A DNA stretch of 64,000 nucleotides from an uncultured Actinomycetota bacterium (GCA_963808435.1 CAWEFW010000049.1:3707-67706), one strand, 5' to 3'. Positions 41,114-46,990 are shown, numbered from the stretch's first letter. The notes: generated by a model not told the origin, from the letters alone. Made by a program: numbers and translations.

Positions 41114-44100
41114 TCAGCCGGCCACCAGCTGGCGGATCTCTTCGGCGGTCAGTGCCGCTCCGGACAGGGCCTCGTCGTCGAAAATCGACCCGAAAAGCTC
41201 CTGCTTGGCCGTCTTGAGCGCCATCACCTTCTCTTCGATGGTGCCCTTCGCGACCAGTCTATAGACCATCAATGACTTCGTCTGGCCAATTCGGTGCGCC
41301 CGGTCGACGGCCTGGGCTTCGGTCGCCGGGTTCCACCACGGGTCCAGCAGGAAGCAGTACCCGGCCTCGCTCAGGTTGAGCCCGAACCCACCGGCCTTGA
41401 GGCTGATCAAGAACACCGAGGCCTCGCCGCCGCGGAAGCGCTCGACGACCTGGTCCCGGTTCCGGGTGTGTCCGTCGAGATACGCGTAGGTCACGCCGGC
41501 CTCCTCGAGCCGGGTGCGGATCCGGCCGAGGAAGCTGGTGAACTGGCTGAACACCAGCGCCTGGTGGCCCTCCCGGACGATCTCGGCCAGGTCGCCGAGC
41601 AGCACCTCGACCTTGGCGGCCGGGACGCTGGAGTTGGCTTCGTCCAGCAATGCCGCGTCGAGGCTCAGCCGACGCAGCAGGGTCAGCGAGCGCAGCACCG
41701 TGAACCGGTTGGCGTCCAGGTCCTCGATCAGCCCGAGCACCTTCTGCCGCTCCCGTTGCAGGTGGGTCTGGTAGAGCCGCTGGTGGCGCGGGTGCAGCTC
41801 GACCTCGACCACTTGCTCCTGCTTGGGCGGCAGCTCAGCGGCCACGGCGTCCTTGGTCCGGCGGAGCAGGACCGGCCGGATCCGCCGCCGGAGCTGGGCC
41901 AGCCGGGCGGCGTCCCGGTTCCGCTCGATCGGCCGGCGGAAGTACTCCGCGAACCGGTCCGCCGAGGGGAACAGGCCGGGCGCGGTGATCGAGAGCAGCG
42001 CCCACAGGTCCATCAGGCTGTTCTCGAGCGGGGTGCCGGTGATCGCCAGCTTGAACGGGGCCCGCACCCGACGAGCGCACGCGTAGGTCTTCGCCCGATG
42101 GTTCTTGACGAACTGCGCCTCGTCCAGCACCAGCCCGGACCAGGCCAGCTCGGCCAGCTGGTCGCACTCGATCCGTAGCAGGGCGTAGGAGGTGACCACC
42201 AGGTCGGCGCCGGCGACGACCTCGTCGACCGGTCGCCCGCGCTTGCCGGTTGATTCGGTCAGCGAGACCGTCCGGAGCCCGGGGGCGAACCGGTTCGCCT
42301 CAGCCGTCCAGTTGGAGACCACGCTGGTCGGGGCGACGACCAGGAACGGTGGAGCGTCCGGCTCCGTCTCGCGAGCCCGGGCGACCAACGCCAGGGTCTG
42401 CAGCGTCTTACCCAGACCCATGTCGTCGGCCAGGATCCCGCCGAGCTGGTGGGTCCACAGGAAGTCAAGCCAGCGCAGGCCGTCCAGCTGGTAGGGCCGC
42501 AGCTGCGCCTGCAGCCCGGCCGGCGGATGAACCGGCTCGACCACGGTGGTGCCGGCCAGCCGACGGACGGCCGCGTTCCACTGCACCGACTCGTCGATCT
42601 CGGCGCCGAGAGCCGCCAGGTCCTCCCACAGGCTGGTCTGGAAGCGGTTGATCGACAGCTCTGGGTGCGGCCGGTCGACCAAGGCCTGGGACTCGGTGAT
42701 CAGCTCCCGCAACGCGGTGAACTCCGGCCTCTCCAGGTCGAAGTACACCCCGGTCTCCAGGACCAGGTACTCCTCACCCGAGGCGAGGGCGACGAACAGC
42801 TCGTCGAACGGCACCTCCTCGCCGTCGATCGTCACGCGGACCTGCAGGTCGAACCAGTCGGTGACCCGGGGTCGGGGGGTGGCGGCGACCCGGATCTGTG
42901 GTTCGGCGGTGGTCTGGCGGTAGTCGACCACAGCACCCGACAGCACGACGTCCACCCCCCGCGCGGCCAGCTCCGGTACCTGGTGCTCGACGAACCGCAG
43001 GGCCTCGCGGCCGGCCAGATCGGTCGGGACCTCCGCATTCGGCAGACCCAGTCCGGCCACTAGGTCCTGCTCGGCGGCCAGGTCACGGACGCTCCGCCCG
43101 ACGGGCGGCTCGTCCAGGGCGAACGACATGGGGCCTTCCGCTGCGGCGTACCGGACGGTCCAGTCCAGGCGTACGCGGTGGTCGGGCAAGAAGGACACCG
43201 TGAGAGCCAGCGTCGGCCGGACAGCGTCGGGCATCCGGACCGACCCGTCGATGGACGTCAGCGGCACGTGCTGACGCAGGGATGGCGCGAACTCCGCCCA
43301 GAAGCGAGGCTCGTCGGCCTCGGGAACCGCTACCGAGCGCTCCTCCACCAGCAGGTGCCGCAGCTCGCGGCTGAGCAGCGTCTCCAGCCGGGCCAGGCAG
43401 ATCTCCTCCGTGCCGTCCGCGCCGGGCTGCAGCCAGAACACGCCGTGAGCGGGCTCGCCGACCACCCCGAGGGCGCCGGCGGGCAGCGGCCGGCCCTCGA
43501 CCAAGACCCGCGGACGCAGCTCGAGGCCGCCGCCGTCGGCCCGCTGAGCGTCCAGCTGGACCTGCGCCCGGCTCGCCGTCCGTACGGGACCGCTCAAGGG
43601 CGAGGCGGTGATCAGCGCCAGGCCGGCCGCGGCCGCCTGGTCGAGCAGCCCCCAGAACCCGCTGCCCACCGAGCTGAGCGACAGCCAGGCGCTCCGCGGC
43701 AAGGTGTAGCGAGCACTCGAGCCGGCCGCCGCCCTGAACTGCAGCAGCAGCTCACGGTGCTCGGGGACGTAGGAACGGGCGACGAAGTCCAGGTCGTCCC
43801 AGCCGATCCCGCTGCGGACCCAGTGGCCCCCCTTCCCCCGCCGGACGGGCCGGATCCGCAGGTCCTGTCGGCCGGCGTAGCCGCGGAACGCCGGGATCCG
43901 CTCGACCCCGAACTCGCAGGCCAAGGGGGCGATCTCCACCTGCGTCGGCGCCGGCCCGGCGACCAGCTTGTCCAGGGTCTTCTCCCAGGCCGGGCGCTCG
44001 TGCGCCGGTGCGGTCGCCAGGTGGCGGGCCACGATGAGTACGGCGGCCGCGTGCTTGCAGTCGACCACCACGGGGCAGGTGCACTGGCTGCGGTACGCCG

Positions 44101-44320
44101 TGACCGTGCCGGAGCGGGAGCTGGCCAGGTACACGCGAACCGCGTAGTCGTCGCGGTACGTGCCCTTGACCCGGCCGCTGACCACCAGGTTCTGCTCGTC
44201 CAGCTCGACGTCGTGCACGTGGCCACCGCGGGCCGCGACCAGGGCGCGGGCGAAGGCCTCGTGGCCGACCATCTGGGTGATCGCCTCGTTGCTGAGCAGC
44301 GAGGTCCAGGCGGCGGCCAC
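41114..44320 (-). CDS. SWIM zinc-finger SNF2-family helicase
   Basis: SWIM 'CTCPVVVDCKH', 'LRPYQLDG', 'LADDMGLGKT', 'DEAQ', 'TGTPLEN', 'SLKAGGFGLNL', 'QAVDRAHRIGQ'; exact start uncertain. Confidence 0.95.
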   Translation of the reverse strand: MAAAWTSLLSNEAITQMVGHEAFARALVAARGGHVHDVELDEQNLVVSGRVKGTYRDDYAVRVYLASSRSGTVTAYRSQCTCPVVVDCKHAAAVLIVARHLATAPAHERPAWEKTLDKLVAGPAPTQVEIAPLACEFGVERIPAFRGYAGRQDLRIRPVRRGKGGHWVRSGIGWDDLDFVARSYVPEHRELLLQFRAAAGSSARYTLPRSAWLSLSSVGSGFWGLLDQAAAAGLALITASPLSGPVRTASRAQVQLDAQRADGGGLELRPRVLVEGRPLPAGALGVVGEPAHGVFWLQPGADGTEEICLARLETLLSRELRHLLVEERSVAVPEADEPRFWAEFAPSLRQHVPLTSIDGSVRMPDAVRPTLALTVSFLPDHRVRLDWTVRYAAAEGPMSFALDEPPVGRSVRDLAAEQDLVAGLGLPNAEVPTDLAGREALRFVEHQVPELAARGVDVVLSGAVVDYRQTTAEPQIRVAATPRPRVTDWFDLQVRVTIDGEEVPFDELFVALASGEEYLVLETGVYFDLERPEFTALRELITESQALVDRPHPELSINRFQTSLWEDLAALGAEIDESVQWNAAVRRLAGTTVVEPVHPPAGLQAQLRPYQLDGLRWLDFLWTHQLGGILADDMGLGKTLQTLALVARARETEPDAPPFLVVAPTSVVSNWTAEANRFAPGLRTVSLTESTGKRGRPVDEVVAGADLVVTSYALLRIECDQLAELAWSGLVLDEAQFVKNHRAKTYACARRVRAPFKLAITGTPLENSLMDLWALLSITAPGLFPSADRFAEYFRRPIERNRDAARLAQLRRRIRPVLLRRTKDAVAAELPPKQEQVVEVELHPRHQRLYQTHLQRERQKVLGLIEDLDANRFTVLRSLTLLRRLSLDAALLDEANSSVPAAKVEVLLGDLAEIVREGHQALVFSQFTSFLGRIRTRLEEAGVTYAYLDGHTRNRDQVVERFRGGEASVFLISLKAGGFGLNLSEAGYCFLLDPWWNPATEAQAVDRAHRIGQTKSLMVYRLVAKGTIEEKVMALKTAKQELFGSIFDDEALSGAALTAEEIRQLVAG

Positions 44321-44514
44321 GTCTTCGACCCTAGTTGCCGGTTCCGACGGATTTGGTCGGCTGGCCTCTTCGCGCTGTCGCGCTCTACCCTCGCCAACAC
44401 ACGAAGCCTGACCCCATGCGCAGCTCACCCACCCCAGTGGACCGATCGGGCGGAGTGTAAAAGTAGGGATGACCGGGTCACGACGGCGCGGTCTCACTAC
44501 TCAACGGAGGATCG

Positions 44515-44820
44515 ATGAGCGAACCAACGTACGGATCCAGCGACGGGCTCGAGGACCTCGAAGGTCCGGCGGACGGCGGCGCCGAGGGTGTACCGGGTGT
44601 GCAGGATGGCGGGGCCGACGGGGGCGCGGACGGCGGGGCCGATGGCGGGGCCGACGGGGGCGCGGACGGCGGGGCCGACGGTGGGGCCGACGGGGGCGCG
44701 GACAGCGGCGCCGAGGGTCCGGCCGACGGCGGAGCAGGCGGCGTGACGGGCGTACGGGATGGCGGCGCTGACGGCGGGGCCGACGGCGGCGCGGACACCG
44801 GCGCGGGACGGTTCAGCTGA
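44515..44820 (+). CDS. Asp/Gly-rich (DGGA)n repeat peptide, 101 aa; candidate precursor or substrate
   Basis: GGAGG RBS before ATG; repeats vary mainly at synonymous codon positions; directly upstream of the JmjC gene. Confidence 0.8.
   Translation: MSEPTYGSSDGLEDLEGPADGGAEGVPGVQDGGADGGADGGADGGADGGADGGADGGADGGADSGAEGPADGGAGGVTGVRDGGADGGADGGADTGAGRFS
44605..44712 (+). repeat. 12-bp coding tandem repeat (8x DGGA + DSGA)
   Basis: GAY-GGN-GGS-GCS units from 44605; a second shorter array (3x DGGA + DTGA) at 44758-44805. Confidence 0.9.
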
Positions 44821-44858
44821 CCACGACCGCATCAAGCAGGTCCGCGAAGGTCGACGGA

Positions 44859-46073
44859 GTGTCCGGGCCAGGTCCCGGGCACTCCGTGCTTTCGCGTCTG
44901 GTCAGCGTGGACCCGGAGCGGTTCGCCACCGAGTTCTGGGGTCGCCAGGCGCTGCTGTCGACCGCGGCTGAGCTGAGCGGCTCACCAGCCGACCTGCTGA
45001 CCGCCGAGGCGGTCGACGAGCTGGTCTCCGAACGCGGGCTGCGCACCCCGTTCCTCCGGGTGGCCAAGAGCGGCAGCACCCTGGCCGAGGGCAGCTTCAC
45101 CGCTCCCGGAGGAGTCGGGGCCGGCGTCGCCGACCAGGTCAGCGACGACAAGCTGGTCCGGTTGTTCGCCGACGGCGCGACGATGGTGCTGCAGGGGCTG
45201 CACCGAGTCTGGCCGCCCGTCATCGCATTCAGCCAGCGGCTGGCGGCCGAGCTGAACCACCCCGTGCAGGCCAATGCGTACGTGACCCCGCCGCAGAACC
45301 AGGGTTTCAGCGACCACTACGACGTGCACGACGTGTTCGTGCTGCAGGTCGCCGGCGAGAAGCGCTGGTCGATCCACGCTCCGGTGCTCGACGCACCCTT
45401 GCGAAGCCAGCCGTGGACCGACCGGCGGCGCGCGGTGGAGCAGCAGGCGCAACTGCCGCCGCTGATCGAAGCGGTGTTGCGGCCGGGCGACTGCCTCTAC
45501 CTGCCCCGGGGGTTCCTGCATGCCGCCGTCGCGCTGGGCGGCGTGAGCACCCACCTGACCATCGGAGTGCACTCCTGGACCCGGTACGCGGTGGCCGAGC
45601 AGCTGCTCGACCAGGCCCTGCGGACGGTCGGGAACGACCCCGCCCTGCGGCAGTCCCTGCCGCTCGGAGTTCGCTTCGACGACCCCGTCACCTTCGCCGA
45701 GGATATGGAAGCGGCGCGCACGGCGCTGGTGGCCGCACTGCAACGCGCAGACCTCGAGCAGGTTGCGCGGACCCTGCAGAGCGCGGCCCGGGACACCTCA
45801 CGGGCGGCGCCGGTCGGACCCCTGGCCCAGCTGGCGGCCGCCGACACCCTCGCCGTCGAGACGCCCGTGCGACTCCGGGAGCATCTGGCCGCCGCGCTCG
45901 AGGCGACCGGGTCCAGTAGCGTGCTGCGCAGCCGGGCCGGCACCGTGGCGCTGCGCGAGGAGGACGTCGCCCCGGTCAAGGCTCTGCTGGCCGACGGCCG
46001 GCTGACCGCGGGCGACCTGGGACTGGATCTGGCCCGGCGGCTGCTGTTGGCCGGAGTGGCCGTGGCCGGTTGA
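44859..46073 (+). CDS. JmjC/cupin Fe(II)/2-oxoglutarate hydroxylase (NO66/MINA53/RoxA-like)
   Basis: 'ANAYVTPP..QGF..HYDVHDVFVLQVAGEKRW...L.PGDCLYLPRGFLH...STHLTIG' with HxD...H triad; frame is open back to CTG 44817. Confidence 0.92.
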   Translation: MSGPGPGHSVLSRLVSVDPERFATEFWGRQALLSTAAELSGSPADLLTAEAVDELVSERGLRTPFLRVAKSGSTLAEGSFTAPGGVGAGVADQVSDDKLVRLFADGATMVLQGLHRVWPPVIAFSQRLAAELNHPVQANAYVTPPQNQGFSDHYDVHDVFVLQVAGEKRWSIHAPVLDAPLRSQPWTDRRRAVEQQAQLPPLIEAVLRPGDCLYLPRGFLHAAVALGGVSTHLTIGVHSWTRYAVAEQLLDQALRTVGNDPALRQSLPLGVRFDDPVTFAEDMEAARTALVAALQRADLEQVARTLQSAARDTSRAAPVGPLAQLAAADTLAVETPVRLREHLAAALEATGSSSVLRSRAGTVALREEDVAPVKALLADGRLTAGDLGLDLARRLLLAGVAVAG

Positions 46074-46990
46074 GCGAGGCTCCGGCTGCCTTCCGGTGTG
46101 CGACGGCCGCACGCGGTCGGGCCGACCCGATGGCGGGCTCCGCACCCCAGGCCCGGGGCTGGCTGTTGTTGGAGCACCCCGGTCCCTGGCCGGTCGATGC
46201 CGTAGCCGGGTCCGGGATCGAGCCGCGGATCCTCCAGACCCTGCAGAACGCGGCGGCGGCCGCGGGCGCTCGCATCCTCCTGGTCCGTCGGCCGGGTCGT
46301 CCTGAGCGCGATGCGGGGCGGCGCTGGGCGGTGGTTCGTCCCGGTCTGGCTACGGTCGCGGCGCCGTGGCGGGAGGACACGGATCTGCGGGCCGCGGCGG
46401 CAGCCCTGGCGGGCGCGCCGGCCACCGACGCCCGGACCGCGAATGCGGCTGACGCTCTCATCCTGGTATGTGCGCACGGGGTGCACGACGCCTGCTGCGC
46501 CATCCGCGGTCGCCCGGCCGCGGCGGCCCTGGCCGAGCACTTCCCTGGCCAGGTGTGGGAATGCAGCCATGTCGGCGGCGACCGGTTCGCGCCCAACGTG
46601 GTGCTGCTCCCCGACGGTTTCTACTACGGCAACCTGGACCCCGAGTCGGCGGTCCGCGCCGTGCGGGAGCACCTGGCCGGCGCGGTGGACGCACGGTGGT
46701 TACGGGGCATGGCCAGCGTTCCGCCGCCTGTGCAGGCCGCAGCGGTGGCCGCGTACGAACGCCTTTGGCCTCTGCCGCCGGGAGCGGTGTCGGTGGAGCA
46801 GGTGCAACAGGTCGGCCCGCACGATGGCCACGGCTCCGAGACCACCGTTCGACTGCGCACCGCCGCCGCCACTCGGGTGCAGGTCCAGGTCGTCGCGGTC
46901 CGCCGCTCGGCCGCCCAGCTGACCTGCCGCGCAGCGCGGGAGACCCCGGCCACCGCGTACGAGATCGTGTCGTTCGCGGTGCTGACCTGA
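46070..46990 (+). CDS. Sucrase/ferredoxin-like thioredoxin-fold protein (Apd1/Aim32-like)
   Basis: 'WLLLEHPGPW', 'LVCAHGVHDACC', 'WECSHVGGDRFA'; TTGA overlap with the JmjC gene. Confidence 0.88.
   Translation: MSEAPAAFRCATAARGRADPMAGSAPQARGWLLLEHPGPWPVDAVAGSGIEPRILQTLQNAAAAAGARILLVRRPGRPERDAGRRWAVVRPGLATVAAPWREDTDLRAAAAALAGAPATDARTANAADALILVCAHGVHDACCAIRGRPAAAALAEHFPGQVWECSHVGGDRFAPNVVLLPDGFYYGNLDPESAVRAVREHLAGAVDARWLRGMASVPPPVQAAAVAAYERLWPLPPGAVSVEQVQQVGPHDGHGSETTVRLRTAAATRVQVQVVAVRRSAAQLTCRAARETPATAYEIVSFAVLT

Follow-up and report, generated by a model that had tools for sequence, protein, structure and literature searches.

A conserved actinobacterial gene pair for an acidic DGGA-repeat protein and a ROX-type JmjC oxygenase, frequently joined by a Suc_Fer-like ferredoxin gene: a candidate substrate and its enzyme

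The closest described relatives of the enzyme considered here are the JmjC ribosomal oxygenases (ROX), namely human NO66 (RIOX1) and MINA53 (RIOX2), E. coli YcfD (RoxA) and Rhodothermus YcfD. Known substrates of the ROX enzymes are hydroxylated in Gly-rich loops, and for the bacterial JmjC/ROX oxygenases very few substrates are known at all, those few being ribosomal. The ROX enzymes described so far have as their substrates basic ribosomal proteins whose genes lie elsewhere; here we describe an enzyme of this type that is invariably linked to the gene of a small acidic repeat protein, and this co-inherited protein is a testable candidate substrate. The locus occupies positions 44515-46990 of a 64,000-nucleotide stretch of DNA from an uncultured Actinomycetota bacterium (GCA_963808435.1, CAWEFW010000049.1:3707-67706), hereafter the window. 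It comprises three open reading frames (ORFs) on the same strand: the small repeat ORF, the JmjC gene and a gene for a Suc_Fer-like protein. All three genes had been proposed in a first-pass annotation made from the sequence, and our ORF calls place them exactly where it did.

Several other systems bear a partial likeness to this arrangement. In ankyrin-repeat proteins the JmjC enzyme FIH hydroxylates Asn, Asp or His on the beta-carbon at corresponding sites of the repeats, a multi-site modification of a repeated motif such as we propose below. FIH, however, belongs to another JmjC clade, and its ankyrin-repeat substrates are folded and encoded apart from it. Fe(II)/2-oxoglutarate (2OG) enzymes also beta-hydroxylate peptidyl Asp, giving a metal-binding residue, as in CinX (cinnamycin) and AspH (EGF domains); these differ in not being JmjC_2 proteins, with no homology detected, and in acting on single sites of folded or cyclised substrates. 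JmjC Fe(II)/2OG enzymes that hydroxylate a ribosomal peptide of their own cluster have been described in CzlI (curacozole; PMC11575548) and BipG (biphenomycin; PMC12707348). Both, however, come from clusters of several enzymes, in which recognition depends on a leader and proteases and transporters are present, and hydroxylate a single site, Phe or Orn; moreover, CzlI is YxbC-like rather than NO66-like. Finally, Iyer, Aravind and colleagues predicted in 2010 that Gly-rich collagen-like proteins co-encoded with 2OG hydroxylases are the substrates of these enzymes (PMC2938197). There too a 2OG-type hydroxylase and its proposed substrate, a Gly-rich repeat protein, share a bacterial operon, but the enzymes belong to the classical 2OGFeDO beta-hydroxylases, the partner proteins are secreted and built of tripeptide repeats, and sulfotransferases and other enzymes are found in the operons. 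The survey of bacterial JmjC neighbourhoods in the same paper does not mention an actinobacterial DGGA/JmjC pair, and a literature search on the motif strings and on JmjC, RiPP (a peptide made on the ribosome and modified after translation) and ROX terms, with subscription-only literature outside its scope, returned nothing on it. The pair is therefore likely to be undescribed.

The gene at 44859-46073 (+ strand) encodes a 404-residue member of the ROX family, resembling NO66, MINA53 and YcfD. Its product matches the Pfam JmjC_2 model (PF08007) at E = 1.8e-27, scoring 95.8 bits where the cut-off is 22, and the PDB sequences that it matches are those of NO66 (E = 4e-19), MINA53 (2e-16) and YcfD (3e-6), together with Rhodothermus YcfD and B. 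subtilis YxbC. Residues H153, D155 and H221 align to the iron triad of NO66 and are invariant in 36 homologues; thus the NO66/RoxA-type JmjC protein with an intact HxD...H triad that the first-pass annotation had recognised is borne out by Pfam, by the NO66 alignment and by Foldseek. K168 (in GEKRW), also invariant in the homologues, aligns with the Lys of the NO66 sequence GRKLW, which lies 15 residues after the first His and which we take to be the binder of the 2OG C5-carboxylate; the enzyme is presumably 2OG-dependent. It also carries, as H232-L-T234, the HxT motif that Iyer et al. noted in the bacterial versions nearest the eukaryotic ROX enzymes (PMC2938197). The top Foldseek matches of its AlphaFold2 (AF2) model are again NO66, MINA53, YcfD and YxbC. 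That model is of low confidence (predicted local distance difference test, pLDDT, 57). The order of its secondary-structure elements fits the layout of JmjC barrel, helical dimerisation region and C-terminal winged helix, and its alignments to NO66 (about 20% identity), MINA53 and YcfD extend over the whole chain, but they reach TM-scores of only 0.32-0.41.

The linkage between this enzyme and the repeat protein is strict, and it holds in both directions. From contigs representing one genome per species (at least 582 stretches matched) we collected 80 loci, each surrounding a JmjC homologue with 55-73% identity; they cover Propionibacteriaceae, Nocardioides, Terrabacter, Humibacillus, Paenarthrobacter and Angustibacter. 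In every one of the 78 loci that could be assessed, having at least 250 nt of DNA upstream of the JmjC gene, one upstream frame contains at least four D-x-G-x units. The earlier suggestion that DGGA peptides would be co-conserved upstream of JmjC homologues is thus strongly supported, and the contrary expectation, that homologous pairs would usually lack the repeat peptide, is false. Starting instead from homologues of the peptide, all six loci reached (in Streptomyces, Phytohabitans, Amycolatopsis, two Aeromicrobium and one metagenome-assembled genome) have the JmjC gene directly downstream; their gene order is peptide, JmjC and usually the Suc_Fer-like gene, and beyond these genes the neighbourhoods are unrelated. 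Scanning metagenome contigs for the motif yielded 18 loci; 14 of them are long enough to be judged, and each of these has the JmjC gene directly downstream, bringing the total for the peptide-to-JmjC direction to 20 of 20 assessable loci. The Suc_Fer-like gene is a less constant companion: it follows the JmjC gene in 59 of the 80 genome loci, while in 20, including those of Terrabacter, Humibacillus and some Microlunatus or Friedmanniella, convergent genes stand there instead. Because of these 20 loci, we regard peptide and JmjC as the conserved core and the ferredoxin-like gene as a frequent accessory. The three-gene operon proposed from the window alone is therefore right in that the cassette is conserved, but too inclusive, since about one locus in four lacks the third gene; most likely we are dealing with a conserved actinobacterial unit of two or three genes that forms one operon.

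Since such a repeat could be a feature of the DNA rather than of a protein, it is important to establish whether the small ORF (44515-44820, + strand, 101 aa) is a gene in its own right. It contains a tandem DNA repeat detected by Tandem Repeats Finder at 44604-44796 (strand unspecified), with a period of 12 and a higher-order period of 36, which encodes the DGGA units, and the same program finds a GACGGCGGNGCN-type repeat directly upstream of the JmjC gene in nearly all the fetched loci. One could imagine that this repeat is a regulatory upstream ORF or leader governing JmjC expression, that it is DNA of a non-coding or unstable kind, or that it is a JmjC N-terminus split off by mistake. Many database entries for the JmjC protein do extend through the +1 frame of the repeat, and in 17 loci the small ORF runs on past the JmjC start, an overlap that would permit translational coupling; a conserved hairpin in the leader (see below) also suggests regulation. 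However, the properties of the frame are those of a protein-coding sequence. A conserved ATG (M-S/T-E/D/Q...) opens it in 72 of the 78 loci, and in all 72 a Shine-Dalgarno-like site, mostly GGAGG or its four-base core, precedes this codon; in the window GGAGG stands at 44506-44510 (+), 4 nt before the ATG, as had been noted earlier. Codons vary where the peptide does not: across families the motifs EGPADGGA (163 copies) and DGGADGGA (496 copies) stay invariant but are encoded by two to four synonymous codons at every position. Differences between orthologues number 13.7k, 14.4k and 36.5k at codon positions 1, 2 and 3. A similar bias is present among strains. Between the window and strains in independent soil and rhizosphere metagenomes we count nine single-nucleotide polymorphisms (SNPs) in the small ORF (44559-44805). 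Third codon positions account for eight of them (binomial P about 0.001), and the remaining one replaces Arg81 by Gln at the only module position that differs between genera too. Purifying selection thus appears to act on the DGGA frame, and the small ORF is, on these sequence patterns, very likely a coding gene.

Relative to the JmjC gene, the repeat ORF lies in frame 0, 1 or 2 in 19, 28 and 25 loci, respectively. In every case it ends at a stop of its own, and the gap between this stop and the JmjC start has a median of 29 nt. As all three relative frames occur, the repeat ORF is neither an extension of the JmjC protein nor a frameshifted part of it, and an N-terminal extension was rejected on this ground and on that of the ever-present stop; the "+1 frame" extensions in the databases are, moreover, highly variable in sequence. 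Codon-position composition and synonymous variation led us likewise to reject a non-coding repeat or a minus-strand PSAP ORF. The motif is also confined to its place: all 11 occurrences of DGGADGGA or EGPADGGA in the window lie within the small ORF, and a six-frame search of 685 kb of homologous loci found 702 occurrences at most 1 kb upstream of a JmjC gene and none elsewhere. Independent soil and rhizosphere metagenome contigs match both ends of the ORF exactly, so that it is not an artefact of assembly; short-read contigs break at the repeat and so give no reading of its copy number. Taken with the start codon and ribosome-binding site kept in the DGGA frame and the third-position bias in both divergence and SNPs, this makes an explanation at the level of DNA, leader or mis-split gene scarcely credible.

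What kind of protein does the gene encode? Its sequence in the window is MSEPTYGSSDGLEDLEGPADGGAEGVPGVQ(DGGA)8DSGAEGPADGGAGGVTGVR(DGGA)3DTGAGRFS, that is, 38 Gly, 17 Asp and 17 Ala, with 22 acidic residues against 2 basic ones and not a single Lys, Cys or His. The first-pass count of 13 DGGA units plus one DSGA and one DTGA in 101 residues is exact. A bare (DGGA)n was, however, not the correct unit: what the family conserves is a module, EGPADGGA-x-G-x-P-G-x-[H/Q]-DGGADGGA, in which x-G-x-P-G-x forms a short variable turn and is followed by one variable residue and then DGGADGGA. The residue preceding DGGADGGA is H in 75 cases, Q in 63, S in 13 and R in 12. Family members have one to five modules, separated by a free number of DGGA spacers, and range from 56 to 242 aa; the window protein has two EGPADGGA...DGGADGGA modules with DGGA spacers. 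Neither a hydrophobic segment nor a signal peptide was seen in its sequence, and the AF2 model (pLDDT 52) is devoid of secondary structure, so the protein is predicted to be disordered and cytoplasmic. No Pfam or NCBIfam model matches it. A comparison with the RTX-type calcium-binding repeats (GGxGxDxUx) fails as well, the period being four residues (12 nt) rather than a nonapeptide, with no match to HemolysinCabind or any other Pfam entry.

The small gene has mostly escaped annotation, as can be judged from a profile search of 1.84 billion representative proteins that retrieved 85 clusters only, the long ones among them being frameshifted or over-extended calls. Usually the gene is either missed or joined to the JmjC gene in the wrong frame. 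Public entries for JmjC homologues often begin with a false N-terminal extension, 40-120 residues long, in which units of 4 or 8 residues are repeated (TAGPMVAQ, VEPT); examples in our homologue set are P0024, P0026, P0028, P0032, P0059, P0075, P0085, P0091, P0093, P0103 and P0118, two of them tagged as PF04886 PT repeat. Such extensions are the +1 reading of the GAC-GGC-GGN-GCN repeat that encodes DGGA, and by them the small gene is lost from annotations. Where family members have been deposited, they are named "hypothetical protein" or "BatC protein". The latter label, found in UniRef and NCBI for some Amycolatopsis and Streptomyces entries (P0152, P0183, P0184 and cluster members), has no NCBIfam model behind it and looks like a propagated misnomer.

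Given a small protein gene that adjoins a putative modifying enzyme, the first-pass annotation spoke of a RiPP-like system. One part of this label stands: as with a RiPP precursor, the gene adjoins that of the enzyme in all 78 and all 20 loci that can be assessed in the two directions. The other part does not, for we found no leader/core layout, recognition element, leader protease or exporter. The Pfam domains detected were those of JmjC and the ferredoxin-like protein only. In all the lineages examined no conserved protease, transporter or exporter was found near the cassette, and the flanking genes differ completely; the earlier remark that the operon is without protease or exporter thus holds well beyond the window, and fits an intracellular product. 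One might still envisage a true multi-core RiPP, in which the repeat protein is oxidised, cut either by Gly alpha-hydroxylation and scission or by an unlinked protease, and released as a chelator or signal. Identical repeated units are typical of multi-core precursors, 2OG-dependent oxidative cleavage of the backbone has been reported in RiPPs (PMC12636437), and distant paralogues of the enzyme occur in RiPP-type clusters and beside a transporter of the major facilitator superfamily (MFS). Nevertheless, protease, transporter, recognition element and leader/core organisation are conserved in no lineage, and it is the EGPADGGA modules that are conserved, whereas the DGGA number varies freely, as the 56-242 aa of the family attest. 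Because nothing for processing or export is linked to the cassette, we consider a multi-core RiPP quite improbable; "dedicated small-protein substrate of a protein hydroxylase" is a description that fits better.

The distant paralogues in question are Streptomyces JmjC proteins of 28-37% identity, borne on linear plasmids in peptide contexts (L106 2971-4155; L107 2793-4188; L108 2259-3598; L109 2468-4872). One lies inside a cluster of the TOMM (thiazole/oxazole-modified microcin)/thiopeptide type; that of S. clavuligerus follows a 48-aa Asp/Pro-rich peptide with eleven Asp (MDDKKTSLEPDEIEVIPPVSTPDFVIADNDPSDPPIAIADPDPFDPVI); another follows a 45-aa ORF; and two tandem cupins adjoin an MFS transporter. 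They lend support to a peptide-directed theme, as anecdotes rather than as a survey.

We would give about an even chance to the proposition that the small protein is a dedicated multi-site substrate of the ROX-type JmjC hydroxylase. This reading, which has the best support of those considered, draws together the two-way linkage, the frequent coupling of the two genes, the presence of a conserved module in an otherwise disordered protein and the protein-hydroxylase chemistry of the enzyme family. In such a scheme, the first cistron would supply a small, Lys-free, strongly acidic, disordered cytoplasmic protein made of modules and DGGA units. The JmjC enzyme from the second cistron, often translationally coupled to the first, would then hydroxylate one side chain per module or repeat. 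Its likeliest target would be the beta-carbon of the invariant Asp in A-D-G-G, preferred here because of this invariance and because JmjC enzymes such as FIH can hydroxylate Asp; the variable residue before DGGADGGA would be the alternative. In the roughly three-quarters of lineages that have it, the product of the third cistron may act as a redox partner that re-reduces the iron after uncoupled turnover or that gates the activity according to redox state. The cassette is accompanied by no signal peptide, protease, exporter or recognition domain, so that its product is probably retained in the cytoplasm. It would be a hydroxylated polyanion, for which metal binding or buffering, or an oxygen-dependent switch, may be guessed as a role.

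A quite different view is that the JmjC protein is an oxygenase of ribosomal or housekeeping proteins, like YcfD/RoxA, and that the small protein is its partner: an Fe(II) donor, a metal buffer, a regulator or inhibitor, or a substrate mimic. The nearest solved relatives do all hydroxylate ribosomal proteins, one Streptomyces cassette sits directly 3' of a cluster for alternative ribosomal proteins and CobW, and a disordered polyanion is what one would expect of a metal binder or nucleic-acid mimic. Against this, ribosomal-gene adjacency was seen in that single Streptomyces locus among about 100. In addition, strict two-way co-occurrence with stop/start overlap is more typical of enzyme-substrate or obligate partner pairs, and a sharp 8-residue module with a variable centre resembles a recognition site more than generic acidity. 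All in all, a ribosomal or housekeeping target with the small protein as mere partner seems unlikely to us.

Several points nevertheless weigh against the small protein as substrate. The expression data consist of a few exact metatranscriptome contigs, which cover the JmjC gene only. The characterised close relatives of the enzyme, NO66, MINA53 and YcfD, all modify ribosomal proteins and not co-encoded peptides. Genetic linkage, however strict, demonstrates a functional link and not a substrate relation, and the pLDDT of the JmjC model is too low for any argument from docking or active-site geometry. The residue before DGGADGGA varies, and Asp is taken as the target for its invariance and for precedent. 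As for the ferredoxin, its absence from 20 of the 80 loci means that it is not essential to the chemistry, and coupled turnover of 2OG oxygenases needs no external reductant.

The third gene (46070-46990, + strand, 306 aa) encodes a Suc_Fer-like, thioredoxin-like ferredoxin that matches PF06999 with 73.7 bits against a cut-off of 34.9 (E = 2.7e-20). Its TTG start overlaps the TGA stop of the JmjC gene (TTGA). One gene caller prefers an ATG 60 nt downstream, but we retain the TTG since Cys10, which lies ahead of that ATG, is invariant in 64 of 64 homologues. The other invariant residues in this set are C134-x8-C143, C165-x-H167-x3-D171-RFA, H201 and C286. Membership of PF06999 and the C-x8-C motif are shared with Aquifex Fd4 and with yeast Apd1 and Aim32. 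Over its C-terminal half the protein shows a weak alignment to the Aquifex [2Fe-2S] ferredoxin Fd4, in which D171 falls at chain position 59, the last of the four Cys ligands in wild-type Fd4. The candidate cluster ligands are the invariant C134, C143 and H167 with D171 in the fourth position, C165 being invariant too. The known ligand motif of Aim32 is CX8C...HX3H (PMC8482512). The second half-site here is C-x-H-x3-D, in contrast to H-x3-H or C-x3-C, and Cys10 and Cys286 are additional invariant residues. A [2Fe-2S] site is likely, with an unusual set of ligands; the combination of C-x8-C...C-x-H-x3-D with C10 and C286 could point to a second site or to a cluster of non-standard type. We found no literature linking the Suc_Fer-like family to a JmjC enzyme.

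Were the proposed relation correct, it would bring a new protein family, a new multi-site hydroxylation and the first bacterial role for a Suc_Fer-like ferredoxin. One may go further and suppose that Actinobacteria widely encode a class of ribosomally made, JmjC-hydroxylated polyanionic proteins not recognised before (poly-beta-hydroxy-Asp, for example), each with its dedicated ROX oxygenase and its own [2Fe-2S] partner. No earlier bacterial ROX enzyme would then have had a substrate that is co-encoded and not ribosomal, and an oxygen- or metal-linked system of protein modification would be new as well; this wider reading is, however, a rather doubtful one. The carriers of the cassette include the culturable Streptomyces, Amycolatopsis, Nocardioides, Terrabacter and Paenarthrobacter.

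With respect to expression, the relatives have conserved -10-like boxes (GGGTAGG or GCTATACA) upstream of a leader hairpin, and by positional analogy the TAGGGA at 44464-44469 (+) is, with low confidence, a putative -10-like box of the cassette promoter, situated in the intergenic region shared with a divergent SNF2 gene. A scan for the sigma-70 consensus found nothing. The hairpin, of the type CGGCGYC-N4-GGCGCCG, comes right after the -10-like box (leaders of L052-L081, for example L057 3656-3753). In 20 loci of Nocardioides, Terrabacter and related genera 84% of the cells in the stem are paired, against 25-58% when it is slid. Compensatory changes occur in four pairs and U.G wobbles in eight sequences, so that a stem in the RNA is favoured over an operator in the DNA. 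In the window the hairpin GACCGGGUCACGACGGCGCGGUC (44471-44493, +, in the 5' untranslated region) is contained in both the minimum-free-energy and the centroid fold, but this fold is no better than those of shuffled sequences; Rfam has no match for the element. Rhizosphere metatranscriptome contigs are identical to the JmjC gene at 45026-45188 and 45789-46095, and metatranscriptomes also hold fragments of related repeat genes; cover is fragmentary, and no contig is exact over the small ORF. A search for RNA runs belonging to the Streptomyces locus returned none. As DNA carry-over is possible, these contigs are weak support for expression.

The ribosomal-protein neighbour mentioned above belongs to Streptomyces sp. 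NPDC059398 (L082 3042-8305), where the cassette lies directly 3' of a zinc-independent alternative ribosomal-protein cluster (S14, L28 | L33, L31, CobW_C, S18). Clusters of this kind are typically Zur-regulated. A link of the cassette to the Zur regulon was rejected, as the adjacency to ribosomal-protein and CobW genes occurs in this one Streptomyces locus and in no other among about 100; inspection of the window leader by eye likewise shows nothing resembling an AT-rich Zur box.

The window has a G+C content of 69.6%, and the nearest named relatives of its genes are in the Propionibacteriaceae, such as Friedmanniella and Microlunatus. Downstream of the cassette lies a convergent glucose/sorbosone dehydrogenase gene and upstream a divergent gene for a large SNF2/SWIM helicase, whose synteny with the cassette is restricted to the Propionibacteriaceae. 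None of the three cassette proteins matched a defence system in PADLOC. The helicase itself (41114-44497, - strand) matches the PADLOC model of DpdE over its full length (E = 2e-218; other dpd genes were not looked for). Homology of this helicase begins only at about residue 35-65, so that its true start is probably some 100-200 nt downstream of the listed GTG, and the promoter region that it shares with the cassette would be correspondingly wider.

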